Below are positions 42,855 to 51,502 of a stretch of 64,000 nucleotides of DNA, piece by piece (position 1 is the stretch's first letter; every line of letters starts with the position of its first letter). The notes under the pieces are model-generated. The model made no database searches. It saw nothing but the letters and a program-made list of their open reading frames with translations, and was not told the origin of the DNA. Source of the stretch: Candidatus Borrarchaeum weybense (GTDB lineage: Archaea; Asgardarchaeota; Sifarchaeia; Borrarchaeales; Borrarchaeaceae); contig JAHQJS010000005.1 in NCBI GenBank assembly GCA_019057385.1, forward strand, positions 288,799 to 352,798, given 5' to 3'. The position numbers and the translations under genes are program-made.

Positions 42855-44035
42855 CCGCTTTCAATAAAACAAGGTGTTAACTCTCTCATTACCAATTGTT
42901 GACATAAAATTGCTTGTTTTTCTCGTCATTTATAGATGATCTTGCTACATTCATGTTGTTCTCGAAATCGTCTTACACAGACATCGTTTCTAATGCTAGC
43001 TACGGTATCTTTTTTGGTAAATCACGCGCGTAATTTCAAAAAAAAACAGTTGATTATAGCTCTATTGACATCTATTTATCATCGTTCGCAAAAATAAACA
43101 TCTGCGCTCCTTATTACAGTGACCTGACAACACTTTTTTACAGGATATGAGCGCTCTTGCCTTGAAACCTTCATTGCGCGACGGTAAAAAAGATACATAT
43201 AAAAGTGCTAAATGCGTAATATTTATATTGCTTCGCTGTATCACATAATTCCCCTCTATCTGAAATATCAATTTCGGATTTACTTAACTATGAGGGGACT
43301 TTTACCAATTGGATGCAACATACAGACCATAGTGCGTCTGTAGGTGAAGTAATTGGTTGTGAGTTCAACGATGAGCTTAAGGGACTGCGGATCTCAAGTC
43401 TCCTAATGACAAAGACTTGCCGATAGAATTTGGTAGTCTTTGTGAAGGCGGATACTGTGGTTCGCAGCGCGGGTTCGCGCACCAGCACCCCCGTCCACTG
43501 CCTTATGAACTCTGGCAGTAGCTGCGGCGCCTCAACGGACTCGGGCTGAACCTTGAGTGATTAGATCCAACTTCCACAAACTTATAGTTATTACTTTTAC
43601 GTATATCAAAGTAATTACCGCGATATACTTGCCTTCATCCCTCTTGTGGAGGAAGAGGGAACTGCTTTTCATGAGAATGTGGTCGTAGAAGGACTTAGTG
43701 GTTATGGTGAACACATTATCATAACTCGATTGAGTCTCGTTAAATGAGCAGGCTCGCTTGTGGCTCCGATACCGGTTGATCCTGCCGGACCCGACCGCTA
43801 TTGGGATGGGATTAAGCCATGCAAGTTGTGCGCTCCTAGTTATGAAGGAGAGCGGCAAAAAGCTCTGTAACGTGTAGTTAACCTCTCCTCAGGACGGGCA
43901 TACCCTCGGGAAACTGAGGTCAATTCCCGATAGTTGATTAGGCCTGGAATGGTTTTTCTTCCAAAGGTATCTTCTCATGCGAGGATACTACCTGAGGATG
44001 GGACTGCATCTGATTAGGTAGATGGTGGGGTAACG

Positions 44036-44074
44036 TGACCTTTAGTACACTCTTACACACTATCGGTCTTATAC
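44036..44074 (+). other. 16S BHB mini-intron, 39 nt (about E. coli 265/266)
   Basis: Interrupts GGGGTAACG|GCCCACC; GTAA/TTAT helix, GACC/GGTC stem. Confidence 0.88.
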
Positions 44075-44158
44075 GCCCACCATGCCGATAATCAGTACGG
44101 GCTGTGAGAGCAGTAGCCCGGAGATGGAGACTGAGACAACGCTCCAGGGCCTACGGGC

Positions 44159-44195
<37 letters not shown>

Positions 44196-44280
44196 TGACG
44201 GGGCCATCCCAAGTGCCATCCGATAAGGGTGGCTTTTTCTCAGTGTAAAAAGCTGGGCGAATAAGGGGAGGGCAAGGCTG

Positions 44281-44406
44281 ACTGGATTGAGGCAAATCAC
44301 TAACACTATATTCTCGATGAACTATACTTCCCTAAAACGCGGCGCTTATAGTTCATCAAAAACTCTTATGCTTATCAAACTTACAAAACGCCTCATCCAG
44401 GCCTAT
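44281..44406 (+). other. 16S BHB intron, 126 nt, no ORF (about 514/515)
   Basis: Interrupts AAGGCTG|GTGCCAGC; AGGC/GCCT helix, CTGGA/TCCAG stem. Confidence 0.92.
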
Positions 44407-44614
44407 GTGCCAGCCGCCGCGGTAAAACCAGCTCCTCGAGTAGTCGGGAGTATTACTGGGCCTAAAGCGTCCGTAGCCGGCTTTGTAAGTTCCTGGTCAA
44501 ACCCAGCGGCTTAACCGTTGGCTTGCTGGGGATACTGCAAAGCTTGGGAATCAGAGAGGCCAAGGGTACTAACAGGGTAGGGGTGAAATCCTGTAATCCT
44601 GTTGGGACCACCGG

Positions 44615-44645
44615 ACAGCAGAGAGACACTCTCCTGCTGGGTGAG
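44615..44645 (+). other. 16S BHB mini-intron, 31 nt (about 722)
   Basis: ACCACCGG|TGGCGAAGG; CACC/GGTG, CAGCAG/CTGCTG. Confidence 0.92.
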
Positions 44646-44716
44646 TGGCGAAGGCGCTTGGCTGGAAGATGTCCGACGGTGAGGGACGAAAGCCAGGGGA
44701 GCGAACCGGATTAGAT

Positions 44717-44747
44717 ACTTGGTGCTAATTATTGTATCATGCTAAAA
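44717..44747 (+). other. 16S BHB mini-intron, 31 nt (about 793/794)
   Basis: GGATTAGAT|ACCCGGGTAGTCC; TTAG/CTAA. Confidence 0.88.
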
Positions 44748-44872
44748 ACCCGGGTAGTCCTGGCTGTAAACGATGCGAGCTAGGTGTTTGCGTGGCTACG
44801 GGCTATGCAAGTGCCGTAGAGAAGTCGTTAAGCTCGCCGCCTGGGGAGTACGGCCGCAAGGCTGAAACTTAA

Positions 44873-44934
<62 letters not shown>

Positions 44935-45040
44935 AAGCCTGCGGTTTAATTGGACTCAACGCCGGGAAGCTTACCGGGGGCGACAGCTGGATGAAAGCCA
45001 GGCTGATGACCTTGCTGGACTAGCTGAGAGGAGGTGCATG

Positions 45041-45919
45041 AGGTAGTCAGGTCGTTAGCAAAACTTTTCGTCGCTTTCCTTTTCCTCTCAATAACAAAAG
45101 TCTAGATTCTTCCTGATGTCCTTTTTAATTAAAAGGGATAAGTCAGGTTGAATTCAAATGACTATTGGCGACAAAGGAAAGTTTGTTTTACTTAAAACGA
45201 AAAGTCTCATCAATCGCATACGTCAACAGCATAATGAAACAGTTCGTGGTATTTACGAGCATGTCGCAGATCTTGTTAAATGGAATACATTTCGAGACTG
45301 GGCTTATAGAGGCTGGTCACGAATGCCTTTAGAAGTATTTAGGCGACTAAAAAGTAAATACAAACTCAAAGAATCACCAAAAACGGTTACAGAAAAACAA
45401 TGGTATACACTAACTCGAACGAGAGCCGCTGAAATAATGCATAAATGCCACCCTCATAAAGAGTGGCTATCAGAAGCCGCAAAAAAAGGCGGCGAGGCTG
45501 TAAAAGAAAAATATGGTGTTAAATATCTAACAAACCTTTCTGCAAAGGCGATTCACTCGTCATCTAGTTATAGGTATGAAGACGATGATGGAAACAAATA
45601 TCGCAGCCGCTTAGAATTATCCATCGCTAAACTACTCCGAACGCATAATTTGAAGTTTATATATGAACCAGAGATTGAGGGATATGTTCCAGATTTCAAG
45701 ATTAATAATCCCCTCATCGAAGTGTGCGGTTATTTCCGTGATAAAGATTATCTTACTCGACTTAAAGTCAAACTAACTGATTTAGTCAATAAAGGCTGGC
45801 AAATAATTCTAATATGCGAGCCTAGCAAAAAAGCAGTTCTCACTGAAGCAGTTAAAGGTATATCCATAAATGCGATTAAGACAACAGATGAGTTTCGACG
45901 ATTTCTGACTACCGGCAAA
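45041..45919 (+). mobile_element. 16S BHB intron, 879 nt, endonuclease-encoding (about 1057/1058)
   Basis: GGTGCATG|GCCGTCGCC; terminal stem GGTAGTCAG/CTGACTACC. Confidence 0.92.
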
Positions 45920-45955
45920 GCCGTCGCCAGTTCGTGCCGTGAGGTGTCCTGTTAA
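45158..45955 (+). CDS. Intron-encoded PD-(D/E)xK (T7 endonuclease I-like) putative homing endonuclease
   Basis: YRSRLE..IA..L......FIYEP....YVPDF......IEVCG; basic N-terminus with KKGG...KEKYG; the genomic ORF runs 36 nt into the exon. Confidence 0.75.
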   Translation: MTIGDKGKFVLLKTKSLINRIRQQHNETVRGIYEHVADLVKWNTFRDWAYRGWSRMPLEVFRRLKSKYKLKESPKTVTEKQWYTLTRTRAAEIMHKCHPHKEWLSEAAKKGGEAVKEKYGVKYLTNLSAKAIHSSSSYRYEDDDGNKYRSRLELSIAKLLRTHNLKFIYEPEIEGYVPDFKINNPLIEVCGYFRDKDYLTRLKVKLTDLVNKGWQIILICEPSKKAVLTEAVKGISINAIKTTDEFRRFLTTGKAVASSCREVSC

Positions 45956-46233
45956 GTCAGGCAACGAACGAGACCCCTGCGCCTAGTTGCCAGCGGATCT
46001 CTGCGGAGATGCCGGGCACACTATGCGGACCGCAGCCGATAAGGCTGAGGAAGGAGGGGGCCACGGCAGGTCAGTATGCCCCGAATCCCCCGGGCTACAC
46101 GCGGGCTGCAATGACGGGTACAATAGGTTTCGACTCCGAGAGGAGGAGGCAATCCTCAAAACCCGTCGCAGTTGGGATCGAGCGCTGCAACTCGCGCTCG
46201 TGAACATGGAATCCCTAGTAATCGCGTGTCATC

Positions 46234-46284
<51 letters not shown>

Positions 46285-46318
46285 TCCGAGTGAGCTTTAG
46301 GCGAGGCGCGTTCCGTAG

Positions 46319-46351
46319 GCAGTATAGGACAACTGTCACATACTGACGGAA
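46319..46351 (+). other. 16S BHB mini-intron, 33 nt (helix 44 tip)
   Basis: CCGT/ACGG helix, CAGTAT/ATACTG stem, bulges AG|G and AA|G. Confidence 0.82.
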
Positions 46352-46380
46352 GATCGTGTCGAACCTGGGGTTCGCAAGGA

Positions 46381-46435
<55 letters not shown>

Positions 46436-47257
46436 CGTAATTAATTTATCCTTTAAGGGCCAAGCTTGAGTCTGCTCATGCGAAAAGACTGCAATCGGGA
46501 ACAATATGATGTGAACCATAAATCACCAGGTTATACATGAAATGCCATATTTTTAGCCGCTTACATAGGTGCGAATGGAACCAGGGGCTCATTAGTGTCT
46601 GGATACATACGCCATCTGGTGGATGACTTGGTTTGGGCACTGAGGAAGGTCGTGGCAAGCTGCGATAAGCCTGGGGTAGGTGCATGCTGCCTTCGAACCC
46701 AGGATTGCCGAATAGGACTTCCAATTAAGGATTAATAACCCTTAATGATCCGTAAGGATCGGGAACCCCGTGAACGGAAACATCTTAGTAACGGGAGGAA
46801 AAGAAACCAATAGGGATTCCCTTAGTAAGGGCGACTGAACGGGGAAGAGAGCAAACTGAACCCCTTAAGGATGACTTAGGGGGGATGTGGTGTGGTAGGC
46901 CTGGTTTCGGCCTACTCAATGAAGTTGAAATGGTCTGGAACGTCCCGCCGTAGAGGGTGAAAGCCCCGTAAACGTAAATTGAGAGGTCTTATGACCAGTG
47001 TCCTTGAGTACTGTGGGCTGGATACCTCGCAGGAATCTGAGAGACACTCACTCTCAACTCTAAATATGTCCCAAATCCGATAGTGCACTAGTACCTTGAG
47101 GGAAAGTTGCAAAGTACCGCGAAAGCGGGGTTAAAAGAGCCTGAAACCAGATGGTAACAGACGTGCGCGGCCCGAAAGGGTAGAGTCTCTTTGAAGGAAC
47201 CCGGAGTAATCCGGCAGTACGAAGAGAGAGGACCAGGGTTGCGCAATCCGTCTTGAA

Positions 47258-47287
47258 ATCAGACGAGATATCCTCGTCTAACAAGAA
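47258..47287 (+). other. 23S BHB mini-intron, 30 nt (about 572/573)
   Basis: CCGTCTTGAA|ACACGG; CTTG/CAAG. Confidence 0.88.
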
Positions 47288-47641
47288 ACACGGGCCGGGG
47301 AGTTTATGGTCGTGGCGAGTTTAAGTGGATCATCCACGTAGGCGAAGGGAAACCGACAGCACGCATCTAGGCGTACCAGCTCACCAACAGTTGGGCTGTG
47401 GTCTATACCGAACCTCATTTGTCCTAATTCTTTCAATGGCTTCGGCCAACGAGAGAGGCAGGGCGCCGAGTGGACGTATGGTCTTCATCTCGACTCAGTA
47501 GTGGGTATGGGCAACTAGTCAGGTGCGAGGTCTTAATCGGCCTGGAGTCACGATTGTAAGACCCGAAAGCGAGTGATCTAGCCCTGGGCAAGATGAAGCC
47601 AGGGGAAACTCTGGTGGAGGTCTGCAGGGGTGTTGACGTAC

Positions 47642-47676
47642 AAGGAAATGAGAGATCATACTCTCGTTCTGCGTAA
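47642..47676 (+). other. 23S BHB mini-intron, 35 nt (about 748/749)
   Basis: GACGTAC|AATTCACTC; ACGT/GCGT. Confidence 0.85.
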
Positions 47677-47716
47677 AATTCACTCCCATGACCTGGGGTT
47701 AGTGGCAAAAGACCAA

Positions 47717-48719
47717 TCGCATTAACAAATGAGCCAATAACTAGCGTTCTCTAATTCCATTAAAAGCAGCCTTTTAATACTAAATTTGATATTATCTGTG
47801 AATAGTTGAATTCGGAGAATCATTGATGACTCAAAGAAAAAAATGGACTGCATATCGCATTAACAAAGATTTTGTTCGCAACAACAAAAAACGAGAACTA
47901 GCAAAATTAGCAGCATTTTTACTTACAGACGGGGGTTTATCCAGAGATAAAAGAACATATGTCATTTATTTCACAAACAAGTCTGAAGTATTACACGAAG
48001 TGTTTGAATCTCTTATAAGAGATCTTGTCCCTCAAGCTAATATGCGAAGCTCAATGTACAAAGGTGTTAAAAGAACTTACTTTAACAGTCTAGAACTTGC
48101 TGAATTGCTTTTTGAACTATCAGATTCTTATCGAACGGCACCATGCGAATCGTATCCAGTTTGCGCTAAGATTCGCGATAAACCCGAAATGATTCCTTGT
48201 ATCAAGTGCAATCAAATACGTGGATATCCCAATGCTACGTATCCTGAGATCAGCGACTTGGAATTGCTGGAAGAAATCTTGCAAATAATTGCGGATACTG
48301 AAGGTGGACCCGTTCTTTTTATTCATAGATATCCTAAATATATCTCTATAAGAAGAAGAATTGAGATAGGATGTTCGCATCCGATTCTTAAGAAACAAAT
48401 TAAACAAATGCTGGAAAAATTAGCTATTCCTAGCAAAATCGCAAAGGATACAATTAGAATTGAAGGTAAAGGAATTAGGATCTTTCGTGACAAAATAGGC
48501 TTTCGAAAGAACGTCAAAATGAGTACTGGTAACTTCGAAGGCTATAATAAGAACAGTGTATTAGAAATTATGATTATCACTAACGAATTGATAACTAAGA
48601 AAAAGTTCTTTCCAAGTAAAGTTGATAACTTGAATGCAATGTTAATGAAGGCTGTAGAACTTTTTGATAATACTTTTTCGCGAGAACGCGTTGTTGAGTT
48701 TTTAGTTAATGGGGGTTAG
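47717..48719 (+). mobile_element. 23S BHB intron, 1003 nt, LAGLIDADG-encoding (about 789/790)
   Basis: GACC/GGTT helix, bulges AA|T and AG|A, CATTAAC/GTTAATG stem. Confidence 0.85.
47823..48719 (+). CDS. Intron-encoded double-motif LAGLIDADG homing endonuclease
   Basis: LAAFLLTDGG and ILQIIADTEGG; the TAG is the last codon of the intron. Confidence 0.9.
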   Translation: MMTQRKKWTAYRINKDFVRNNKKRELAKLAAFLLTDGGLSRDKRTYVIYFTNKSEVLHEVFESLIRDLVPQANMRSSMYKGVKRTYFNSLELAELLFELSDSYRTAPCESYPVCAKIRDKPEMIPCIKCNQIRGYPNATYPEISDLELLEEILQIIADTEGGPVLFIHRYPKYISIRRRIEIGCSHPILKKQIKQMLEKLAIPSKIAKDTIRIEGKGIRIFRDKIGFRKNVKMSTGNFEGYNKNSVLEIMIITNELITKKKFFPSKVDNLNAMLMKAVELFDNTFSRERVVEFLVNGG

Positions 48720-48750
48720 ATAAGGAAGGGTGTGTCCCTCCTTAGGTAAA
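48720..48750 (+). other. 23S BHB mini-intron, 31 nt, directly abutting the LAGLIDADG intron
   Basis: TAAGGA/TCCTTA stem, GACC/GGTA helix; removing both introns restores GACCAA|TCTAACTCGC. Confidence 0.8.
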
Positions 48751-49054
48751 TCTAACTCGCTTATAGCTGGTTCCCCCCGAAGTGCATCTCAGTGCAGTCT
48801 GATCCGAGGTAGCTGGTGGGGTAGAGCACTGATTGTGGAAAGGTGGAGGAGAAATCCTTGCCGCCGCTCTCAAACTCCGAATCTGCCAGCGCCGTAGACG
48901 GTTGGAAACGGGCGGCCGGGCGTAAGGTCCGGCGCCGAGAGAGGAACAACTCTGACTGCGGTTAAGGTCCCTAAGTGCTAGCTAAGTGTGATCATGAAGG
49001 CTGTGGGCAGTCTTAGACAGTGGGGAGGTAGGCTTAGAAGCAGCCATCCTCTAA

Positions 49055-49075
49055 ACTGCTAAAAAGCAGAGAGAA
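49055..49075 (+). other. 23S BHB mini-intron, 21 nt (about 1085/1086, GTPase-associated centre)
   Basis: CTCT/AGAG, CTGCT/AGCAG. Confidence 0.85.
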
Positions 49076-49675
49076 TGAACGCGTAACAGCGCACCCATTG
49101 AGACTGTCCGCGCCGAAAATGGACGGGGCTTAAGCTAGCCACCGATACCGCGGAGCTGACGAAAACTTAGCATGAATCGTCATCTCATTTTCGAATGATT
49201 TGATTTACTCATGTTAATTGAGTACTCAGTTGGTAGGGGGGCGAGCCGGTTGGGCGGAAGCTGGGCTGTGAAGTCCAGTGGACCGACCGGTTTCGCAGAT
49301 CCCGGTGGTAGTAACAGCGTAGTCGGGTGAAAATCCCGATCGCCGGAAGGGCAAGGGTTCCTCGGCAATGCGTCGTCAGCCGAGGGTTAGTCGGTCCTAA
49401 GTCTGGGCGTAAGTCGCGTAAGGCGAAAGGGTAAACGGTTTATATTCCGTTACTACGAGGATACACGCGGTAACGCAAGCCAAGATTCTGACGCTTTCGG
49501 ATAGGCCGATTAGAGCTATCGCTCTAATTAAATGTAGAAACCTCAGGAGTACCGTAATGGTGAGAATGAGGTGAATGCATGAATAGCTTTCCGTAATAGG
49601 TGAGTTCGGTCAACTCCAGGAGCCATTGAAAAAGGACTTGGAAGGATTCTTCGTATCCGTACCCAGAACTGACAC

Positions 49676-49726
49676 TTAGATCGTACAGGAACGTGACAAT
49701 CTAGTCATGCGGACGATTTAGTCAAA
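49676..49726 (+). other. 23S BHB intron, 51 nt (about 1617/1618)
   Basis: GACAC|AGGTG; TGAC/GTCA, TAGATCGT/ACGATTTA. Confidence 0.9.
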
Positions 49727-50384
49727 AGGTGCCCCTAGGTGAGCAGCCTAAGGCGTTTCGGGTGAACTCTGGGCTAGGGAAATCGGCAAATTGGCCCCGT
49801 ACCTTCGGAAGAAGGGGTGCCTACGGTCTTGGGTCGCAAACTTGGGACCGTAGGTCGCAGTGACCAGGAAGTGCTATCTGTTTAATAAAAACATAGCTAA
49901 CTGCTAGCGCGAAAGCGTGTGTACAGTTAGTGAGTCCTGGCCAGTGGCGGTAAGTTAAACCTGAGTTCAATCGGGCGAAGCTCCGCTAAACGCCGGGAGT
50001 AACTATAACTCTCTTAAGGTAGCCAAATGCCTTGCCGGATAAGTACCGGCGTGCATGAAGGGAGCAATGAGCGCTTTACTGTCCCAGCCTGGAACCCGGT
50101 GAACCCACTACCTGGCGAACAGTCCAGGGAGTCCTTGCGGGAAGAGAAGACCCCGTGGAGCTTTACTGCAGCCTGTGCCTGTGCTACGATCGTTGATGCA
50201 GAGCGTAGTCGGGAGCCGTTAATCCCAGCCTCTTCGGGGGTTGGAGTAGGCAACCTTGGAACACCGACCTTCTTTGATTGTATCGCTAACCGGAACGAAC
50301 GTTCTGGAACAAGTGCAGGTGGGCAGTTTCGCTGGGGCGGCAGACCCTTGAAAATGTATCAAGGGTGCCCAAAGGTCAGCTCAG

Positions 50385-50416
50385 AATGCAATTACGTAAG
50401 TGAGTTGCATGAGTAA
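50385..50416 (+). other. 23S BHB mini-intron, 32 nt (about 2299/2300)
   Basis: GCTC/GAGT, ATGCAATT/AGTTGCAT. Confidence 0.88.
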
Positions 50417-50427
50417 GTGGGTCAGAA

Positions 50428-50470
50428 TCAACGGATGAGATTCTGGCTATGACCTTATCAGTTGCTGAAT
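50428..50470 (+). other. 23S BHB intron, 43 nt (about 2310/2311)
   Basis: GGTCAGAA|ATCCACC; TCAG/CTGA, CAAC/GTTG. Confidence 0.88.
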
Positions 50471-50488
50471 ATCCACCGTAGAGCGTAA

Positions 50489-50519
50489 AGGTGAAGGTGA
50501 CCACCACCTTGCCATGTAG
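50489..50519 (+). other. 23S BHB mini-intron, 31 nt (about 2328/2329)
   Basis: GAGCGTAA|AGGTAAAAGC; GCGT/ATGT, AAGGTG/CACCTT. Confidence 0.85.
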
Positions 50520-50642
50520 AGGTAAAAGCTGGCTTGACTGTATTCTGACCAGTAAAGAATGCAGGAACGAAAGTTGGGCTTAGCGATCCTCAATACCTTA
50601 TCAGTGGGGGTTTGAGGTGACAGAAAAGTTACCCCGGGGATA

Positions 50643-50756
50643 AATGCGTCAGTTTTGTGAATATAGAAAGTGTGTAGACAAAGCTTAGTAAAGTTGTATG
50701 GGTAATTTAGCTTTGACGATTGTACAACTTTATGAGCGTCTGCGGCGCATTCCCAA
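50643..50756 (+). other. 23S BHB intron, 114 nt, between A2450 and A2451 equivalents
   Basis: GGGATA|ACAG; GGGA/TCCC, ATGCGTC/GGCGCAT. Confidence 0.92.
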
Positions 50757-50872
50757 ACAGAGTCGTCGCGGGCAAGAGCCCATATCGACCCCGCGGCTTG
50801 CTACCTCGATGTCGGCTCTTCCTATCCTCGATGTGCAGCAGCGTCGAAGGGTGGGGTTGTTCGCCCATTAAA

Positions 50873-50904
50873 AAGGAGGCGAAAAATACCTCTCTCCTTA
50901 ATAG
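50873..50904 (+). other. 23S BHB mini-intron, 32 nt (about 2566/2567)
   Basis: ATTA/TAAT, AGGAG/CTCCT, CCC/GGG. Confidence 0.9.
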
Positions 50905-51059
<155 letters not shown>

Positions 51060-51502
51060 ACAGGTTGGATTCTATCTGCAAGGACTGCCGGTGGTCTGAG
51101 GGTAGGGTGTTCTTAGTACGAGAGGAACGGAACGTCGGAGCCTCTAGTGTACCAGTTGTCCGAAAGGGCAGAGCTGGGCAGCCACGCTCTAACCGATAAG
51201 AGCTGAAAGCATCTAAGCTCGAAGCGGGTCCCGAAAAGAGACCACCAATCACCAACAGAGGAGTTAGGGTGACCGTCCGTAACTGTTGGGGACGAGGACT
51301 CCAGGAAAACACTGGTTTGATAGAGCTGAGGTGTAAGTGTCGAGGGTACAGAGATGGTACTCTTAGTATTGTACACTCGCCTAAATCCCTCCAACCTCTT
51401 GGTCATGTACATAACCGTCTCTTCGGAGATAGTTGTGTCGTGATTAATGTTGTTGGGCCGAGGCACTCAGCCTGCAGCCACTAAACGTCCGAGTGTTCAG
51501 AC

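Follow-up and report, generated by a model that had tools for sequence, protein, structure and literature searches.

Introns with a BHB motif that carry genes for LAGLIDADG homing endonucleases and give stable circles are known in archaeal 23S and 16S rRNA genes, the examples cited in PMC3326292 being those of Desulfurococcus mobilis and Pyrobaculum organotrophum. The rRNA introns of the Thermoproteales have been surveyed (PMC4496867), and archaeal introns are known to be circularised (PMC3326292). In some crenarchaeal pre-tRNAs multiple introns are nested within each other and removed in order, according to PMC3978253, which cites Sugahara 2007 and Tocchini-Valentini 2009. A recent preprint on the introns of Asgard archaea covers tRNA introns only. 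The literature searched contained no account of BHB introns in tandem or nested arrangement in an rRNA.

The stretch of DNA analysed here (64,000 nt, below called the window) contains an archaeal rRNA operon, in which Rfam models place the 16S gene at 43769-46434 and the 23S gene at 46595-51398. About 1035 nt of the 23S gene remain unaligned between consensus positions 910 and 911 of the archaeal LSU model of Rfam, and alignment against intron-free relatives gives an insert of 1034 nt (47717-48750). In the 14 intron-free relatives (eight from the same phylum and six more) GACCAA-UCUAAC or GACCAA-UCUAGC is uninterrupted, reading GGGGCAAAAGACCAAUCUAGC. The ends of the insert are ambiguous within a repeated AAUC, and exon 1 could end anywhere from 47714 to 47718. 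Only one of these five registers, 47716/47717 with 48750/48751, has the geometry of a BHB; excision there yields the junction GACCAA-UCUAAC and restores the conserved mature RNA as found in the 14 relatives. The 23S gene is present in one copy in the genome, as are the insert and its last 31 nt. Therefore, every ribosome depends on the correct removal of this element.

The insert is one mobile element composed of two abutting BHB (tRNA-type) introns, a homing-endonuclease intron of 1003 nt followed by a hairpin intron of 31 nt (Table 1). The initial annotation had claimed two BHBs that share one 5' exon strand, with an exon of zero length between them, and this anatomy is borne out by the pairing layout and by the seven alleles described below.

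Table 1. Features of the insert and of its exon borders (window coordinates).
Feature	Position	Strand	Remarks
End of exon 1	47711..47716	+	GACC 47711-14 is the central-helix strand common to both BHBs; sequence identical in 14 intron-free relatives
First two bulge bases, AA	47715-16	+	cut after 47716
Large BHB intron, 1003 nt	47717..48719	+	homologous introns at same site in relatives
Inner helix 5' strand, CGCAUUAAC	47718..47726	+	pairs with 48705-48713, 8/9
LAGLIDADG homing-endonuclease ORF	47823..48719	+	298 aa from TTG, 297 aa from ATG at 47826
Inner helix 3' strand, GUUAAUGGG	48705..48713	+	partner of 47718-47726
GGUU (48714-17), partner of GACC, then bulge AG/A	48714..48720	+	first 3' cut after 48719
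Mini-intron, 31 nt	48720..48750	+	hairpin, then GGUA, then AA of second bulge
Hairpin	48721-48744	+	9 bp, A48727 bulged, loop UGUGU
GGUA	48745-48	+	3/4 pairs with exon GACC 47711-14
Start of exon 2, UCUAACUCGC	48751..48760	+	U48751 completes the second 3' bulge as its third base

The large intron shows the complete BHB structure. Its central helix, formed by GACC of exon 1 and GGUU, has all four pairs (one of them G-U) and is flanked by two 3-nt bulges, AA/U and AG/A, with the cuts placed after the second base of each bulge. The stop codon TAG of the ORF forms the last three bases of the intron. The initial annotation had ascribed to this intron a BHB of its own that ends at the TAG, and the stop indeed falls exactly at the cut. 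Against Pfam LAGLIDADG_3 the ORF scores 27.4 bits (cut-off 22.5), and it carries on one chain two motifs with acidic residues, FLLTDGG and IADTEGG, as expected of a double-motif LAGLIDADG enzyme; FLLTDGG and ADTEGG are invariant in six homologues. Between the two motifs lie four invariant cysteines (C107, C113, C125 and C128 of alignment A1; window 48130-48210, ORF residues ~107-128), a stretch that may be a zinc-binding insert. At the same site, L025, L029, L031 and L056 have homologous introns of 1018-1029 nt, and L054 a decayed one of 682 nt. A group I intron was considered and ruled out: no group I model of Rfam matched, and only 106 nt lie upstream of the ORF.

The motif of the small intron is a relaxed BHB, with three of four central pairs, bulges AA/A and AA/U, and the hairpin in the place of the inner helix. 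Once the large intron is removed, GACC-AA/A directly adjoins the hairpin and the relaxed BHB is formed. GACC is the only good partner for both 3' strands, GGUU and GGUA. It had been proposed at the outset that the best BHB partner of the hairpin is this same upstream GACC, and the comparison agrees: the hairpin's own upstream strand gives wobble pairs only. When the 31-mer was shuffled, a motif as good as the real one was obtained in only 64 of 200,000 shuffles, so it is not readily put down to chance; the comparison of alleles carries more weight still. Between clades, compensatory changes occur at four of the nine hairpin pairs, and 97.8% of the alignment cells of the hairpin are paired, versus 53-64% with the partners slid (five of the seven alleles compared in both cases). 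The second BHB has only three central pairs in every allele. The possibility that the 31 nt are an expansion of the rRNA was ruled out, since none of the intron-free relatives has them and the RNA joint lacks them too.

Endonuclease searches and retrieval of the contigs yielded seven distinct alleles of the element for which the 3' side is known; their hosts belong to at least three lineages. The endonuclease of L026 is 86% identical in amino acid sequence to that of the window. That of L053, from a third host lineage, is 64% identical, and those of L025 (the same as L032), L029, L031 and L054 (the same as L055), whose hosts belong to another family of the phylum, are 47-52% identical. Over this range (47-86%) both parts are present, in the same layout, in all seven alleles: the inner helix, GGUY in register, the 3-nt bulge, the hairpin element, the 4-nt strand for GACC and the last bulge. 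For L026 and L053 this refers to the 3' layout. GGUY occurs in six of the seven (GGUA in L053), and the mini-intron measures 31 nt in six and 33 nt in L054. In the five alleles known on both sides, the motif of the large intron, BHB(a), combines a complete (4/4) central helix with 8-13 bp of inner helix. The motif of the small intron, BHB(b), consists of the hairpin and a 3/4 central helix in four of these five; in L054 a 3-bp central helix is found in a shifted register, and only in the folded intermediate. The inner helix of the large intron is also kept with unrelated sequences, CUUAUGAAG with CUUCAUAAG in L030 and CUCAUUG with CAAUGAG in L047.

L054 has lost one third of the endonuclease gene and its ORF is split, while both splice motifs are retained. 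Likewise, the circle of L030 has an in-frame stop inside the ORF and its splice motifs are retained. Judged by their sequences, L054 and L030 are decayed copies, in the pattern expected for homing-endonuclease decay. The stop codon of the L053 ORF falls within the small hairpin intron. When 400 genomes of the phylum were searched at the protein level, only distant homologues (at most 39% identity) were returned, and those checked reside in inteins or at other rRNA sites; the protein collections contained no full-length protein of the L030/L047 clade.

This anatomy suggests two rounds of removal, in each of which the tRNA-splicing endonuclease (EndA) would cut and the ligase RtcB would join. 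In the first round, GACC of the precursor would pair with GGUU beside the inner helix, and EndA would cut after 47716 and after 48719. The 1003-nt piece with the endonuclease gene would be released and closed into a circle, and exon 1 would be ligated to A48720. In the second round, the freed GACC, now beside the 31-nt hairpin, would pair (3 bp) with GGUA to give the relaxed BHB; EndA would then cut at the ligation junction and after 48750, and RtcB would join 47716 to 48751. We infer the order of these steps and the re-cutting of the ligated junction. The genome contains two genes with an EndA domain and two RtcB loci, and Asgard EndA has been reported to be of the broad-specificity (alpha-beta)2 type (PMC5829648). 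Such two-step, ordered and recursive-like splicing at one exon edge is the best explanation of the insert, and we regard it as quite probable. The argument is drawn from the conserved anatomy, from folding and from the circles of homologues rather than from RNA of the window organism. The initial annotation had likewise proposed that removal of the large intron creates the BHB of the small one and so imposes an order; the conserved motifs, the folding, the homologues' circles and RNA contigs without the 1034 nt all speak in favour of this proposal.

Circular contigs were obtained from three related introns: L030 (terminal overlap 30 nt, unit 1002 nt), L047, identical to L048 and thus present in two samples (overlap 123 nt, unit 1000 nt), and L057 (overlap 123 nt, unit 1018 nt). 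We infer that these contigs are RNA. Contig L056 consists of 672 nt of 23S exon 1 ending in GACCAA, followed by 1018 nt identical to L057, after which it runs into the intron's own start; the L057 circle therefore belongs to this very 23S site. At the junction, all circles read the inner-helix 3' strand, GGUY and two bulge bases, joined to one bulge base and the inner-helix 5' strand. The circles are thus closed exactly at the BHB cuts of the large intron, which is what cutting at the first BHB and ligation of the intron ends predict. The hairpin is contained in none of the three. Every allele with a known 3' flank has the hairpin; the three circle-forming alleles, which are known without their genomic 3' flank, may lack it in the gene. 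The 301-aa endonuclease ORF on the 1000-nt circle of L047 runs through the 3' cut without a stop and terminates 9 nt beyond the circle junction; only on the circle is it complete. A search with the predicted circle junction gave no hits in viral contigs and four chance hits, to bacteria, in genome contigs.

The final product would be identical if the insert left in one step, as a single intron of 1034 nt. For this, EndA would cut after 47716 and 48750 in a relaxed branched motif, in which GACC pairs with GGUA, the hairpin is stacked on top and GGUU-AGA is not used. GGUA can pair with GACC at three of four positions in the precursor too, and relaxed motifs are cut by EndA types of broad specificity (PMC5829648). 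However, the one-step motif has in the precursor no inner helix continuous with the 5' bulge. In mini-constructs its fold was 1.5-5.4 kcal/mol worse than BHB(a). When the precursors of three E-clade alleles (~1.1 kb) were folded, the pair probability of GACC-GGUC was 0.52-0.99, while that of pairs with the second partner was about 0. Moreover, one-step excision leaves unexplained why GGUY and the 3-nt bulge are retained in exact register in the alleles, and the homologous circles are of 1000-1018 nt and free of the hairpin. It therefore seems very unlikely that the insert leaves as a single intron, cut in the precursor at GACC with GGUA under the stacked hairpin.

For the ordered two-step route, the intermediate was folded as well, and BHB(b) was the MFE structure (window) or lay within 0.1 kcal/mol of the MFE. 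By predicted pairing, the second BHB cannot form before the first intron leaves. In the window's clade the MFE structure contains a competing helix of 8 bp (48714-21 with 48750-57). Because this helix is more stable in silico, BHB(a) is not predicted there by RNAfold, and folding alone does not settle the case of the window. The helix arises from complementarity between the end of the large intron, GGUUAGAU, and the start of exon 2, AUCUAACU, and is found only in the window's clade (also in L026).

It might also be supposed that the two introns are independent and leave in no fixed order. In that case, the hairpin may be the first to go, with GGUU (48714-17) serving as its 5' strand, and the large intron would then be removed with exon 2 directly at its 3' bulge. 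Either way the same mature RNA and the same 1003-nt circle would result, and GGUU with GGUA, or GGUC with AGUC, can form three mostly wobble pairs (layout (d)). Nevertheless, the central helix of layout (d) consists of three G-U pairs and a mismatch in the window, and of one Watson-Crick and two wobble pairs in the E clade, while the predicted precursor fold has GGUY paired with GACC. Furthermore, no allele lacks either part, a state that would be tolerable if each intron could be spliced alone. We therefore consider both the early departure of the hairpin and the subsequent removal of the large intron against exon 2 unlikely, and retain the ordered route.

The RNA evidence consisted of assembled contigs only, from which rare forms would drop out. 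In RNA contigs from two wetland studies (X8, depth ~1100; X11, depth ~10,000) position 47714 is joined to 48749 with four ambiguous bases, equivalent to 47716/48751, which means that the whole 1034-nt insert is removed. These contigs differ by ~3% from the window and thus come from close relatives. Given this divergence, and since the intron-free allele is present as DNA in run X5, they could stem from an intron-free relative. The same libraries contain low-depth contigs 92-96% identical to the ORF, which indicates that a carrier relative is present. The intermediate GACCAA/AUAAGG, the 31-nt circle and a circle of the window's own intron were each absent from the contigs, in which RNA cover is missing at 47729-47809 and 48620-48748. 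Other joints (47718 to 48806, 47718 to 48870 and others; side 21-24) look like those of other organisms and were set aside.

The distribution of the two parts was then compared with that of the empty site. The exons of L025 are 98.6-99.9% identical to those of species genomes G008 and G044, which read straight through the site with neither part, and four further genomes of the same family are also empty at the site. No allele with a single part (large only or small only) was found, versus seven composite alleles and at least 14 empty sites. A pattern scan of ~185,000 species genomes for an insert of 17-47 nt alone at the site gave no hits. Both parts are thus gained and lost together, and the pair behaves as one mobile unit. 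Such joint gain and loss would follow from homing of the endonuclease into the empty site, with repair copying all that lies between the exons. The element would thereby spread, and be lost, as a whole, with GACCAA/UCUAAC as the target of the LAGLIDADG enzyme. Homing by this enzyme would fit the presence and absence of the element between genomes with ~99-100% identical exons and the decayed ORFs of L054 and L030, which are indirect signs of it.

These results do not agree with the initial annotation on one point, namely that an already occupied site was invaded again, for which strains with only one of the two introns had been suggested as a check. A recent re-invasion would mean that the mini-intron was already at the site and that the endonuclease intron later homed in beside it. 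The separate BHBs of the two parts would suit such a history, and the presence of mini-introns does vary among relatives in this operon, as with the 21-nt one at 49053-73. Yet neither mini-only nor large-only alleles were found among the 14 related 23S genes, the scan of ~185,000 genomes gave no short insert alone at the site, the two parts occur together even in clades whose endonucleases share only 47-52% identity, and genomes ~99-100% identical in the exons lack both parts. A recent re-invasion is thus highly improbable, and the pair is better regarded as one unit; an ancient double origin of the two parts is conceivable.

Several other insertions in the operon are of use for comparison. 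The other mini-introns of the window's 23S gene show 4/4 central pairing and 5-9 bp of inner helix, mostly without an outer (exon-exon) helix, so motifs of this kind appear to be normal substrates here. In the 35-nt mini-intron 47642-47676 the central helix is ACGU with GCGU, and one X8 RNA contig joins 47641 to 47677 and also skips the 1034 nt. L026, whose overall identity is ~89%, does not have the 21-nt mini-intron (49053-73; window 49053-49076), which shows that mini-introns are gained and lost between close relatives. At 50385-50519 there are three mini-introns (32, 43 and 31 nt) separated by micro-exons of only 11 and 18 nt, and their BHBs may be mutually dependent. The region 47359-47515 contains insertions of 19 and 116 nt relative to other genomes of the phylum and is covered by RNA contigs of two studies; it looks like a retained rRNA expansion segment, not an intron. 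The large 16S intron at 45041-45919 measures 879 nt by alignment. Its only BHB-type inner helix is AGGUAGUCAG with CUGACUACC, and no hairpin follows the intron, which indicates that the two-part design is not general in the operon.

Taken together, the results describe a family of mobile LAGLIDADG 23S introns of Asgard-type archaea. It seems more probable than otherwise, though by no means secure, that this family always travels with a 3' mini-intron of 31 nt, that EndA splices it recursively at a zero-length exon, and that the hairpin is a selected part of the element and not debris. If the two-step route is true, protein-only splicing by EndA and RtcB can act recursively on a large rRNA, and a homing intron can bear an auxiliary mini-intron of its own. 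Ordered BHB splicing would in that case not be confined to a few crenarchaeal tRNAs but would include rRNA, and this in the archaea nearest to eukaryotes. The two-part insert is also a natural substrate for studying how EndA chooses between competing motifs. For annotation, what looks like a single insertion in an rRNA gene may consist of two introns, and circular contigs of ~1 kb in metatranscriptome-like assemblies can be excised introns.

The element resembles the introns of Desulfurococcus mobilis and Pyrobaculum in the BHB at its junction, in the intron-borne gene for a double-motif LAGLIDADG enzyme and in the polymorphism of presence and absence between close relatives. A circular excised intron would be a further likeness, here in the form of circular contigs of homologues only. 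Unlike those introns, it has tandem BHBs on one 5' exon strand with no exon between them, its host is not a crenarchaeote, and its site lies at Rfam LSU consensus positions 910/911. With the nested introns of crenarchaeal pre-tRNAs it would share a last BHB that forms only after another intron has been removed, and repeated cutting by EndA and ligation. In contrast, those nested introns are short, free of genes and located in tRNA, whereas the window element sits in rRNA and one of its partners is a 1-kb mobile endonuclease intron. Its two introns abut rather than nest, and as a further difference they are passed on and mobilised together, as one unit. Recursive splicing at zero-length exons and twintrons are familiar from other kinds of introns, namely from the ratchet points of spliceosomal introns and from the twintrons of Euglena and of fungal organelles. 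The analogy is that, once one part has been taken out, a splice site exists again at the same exon edge and splicing becomes stepwise. Those systems use a spliceosome or a ribozyme, whereas on the reading preferred here a protein endonuclease and a ligase would act, by a wholly different chemistry.
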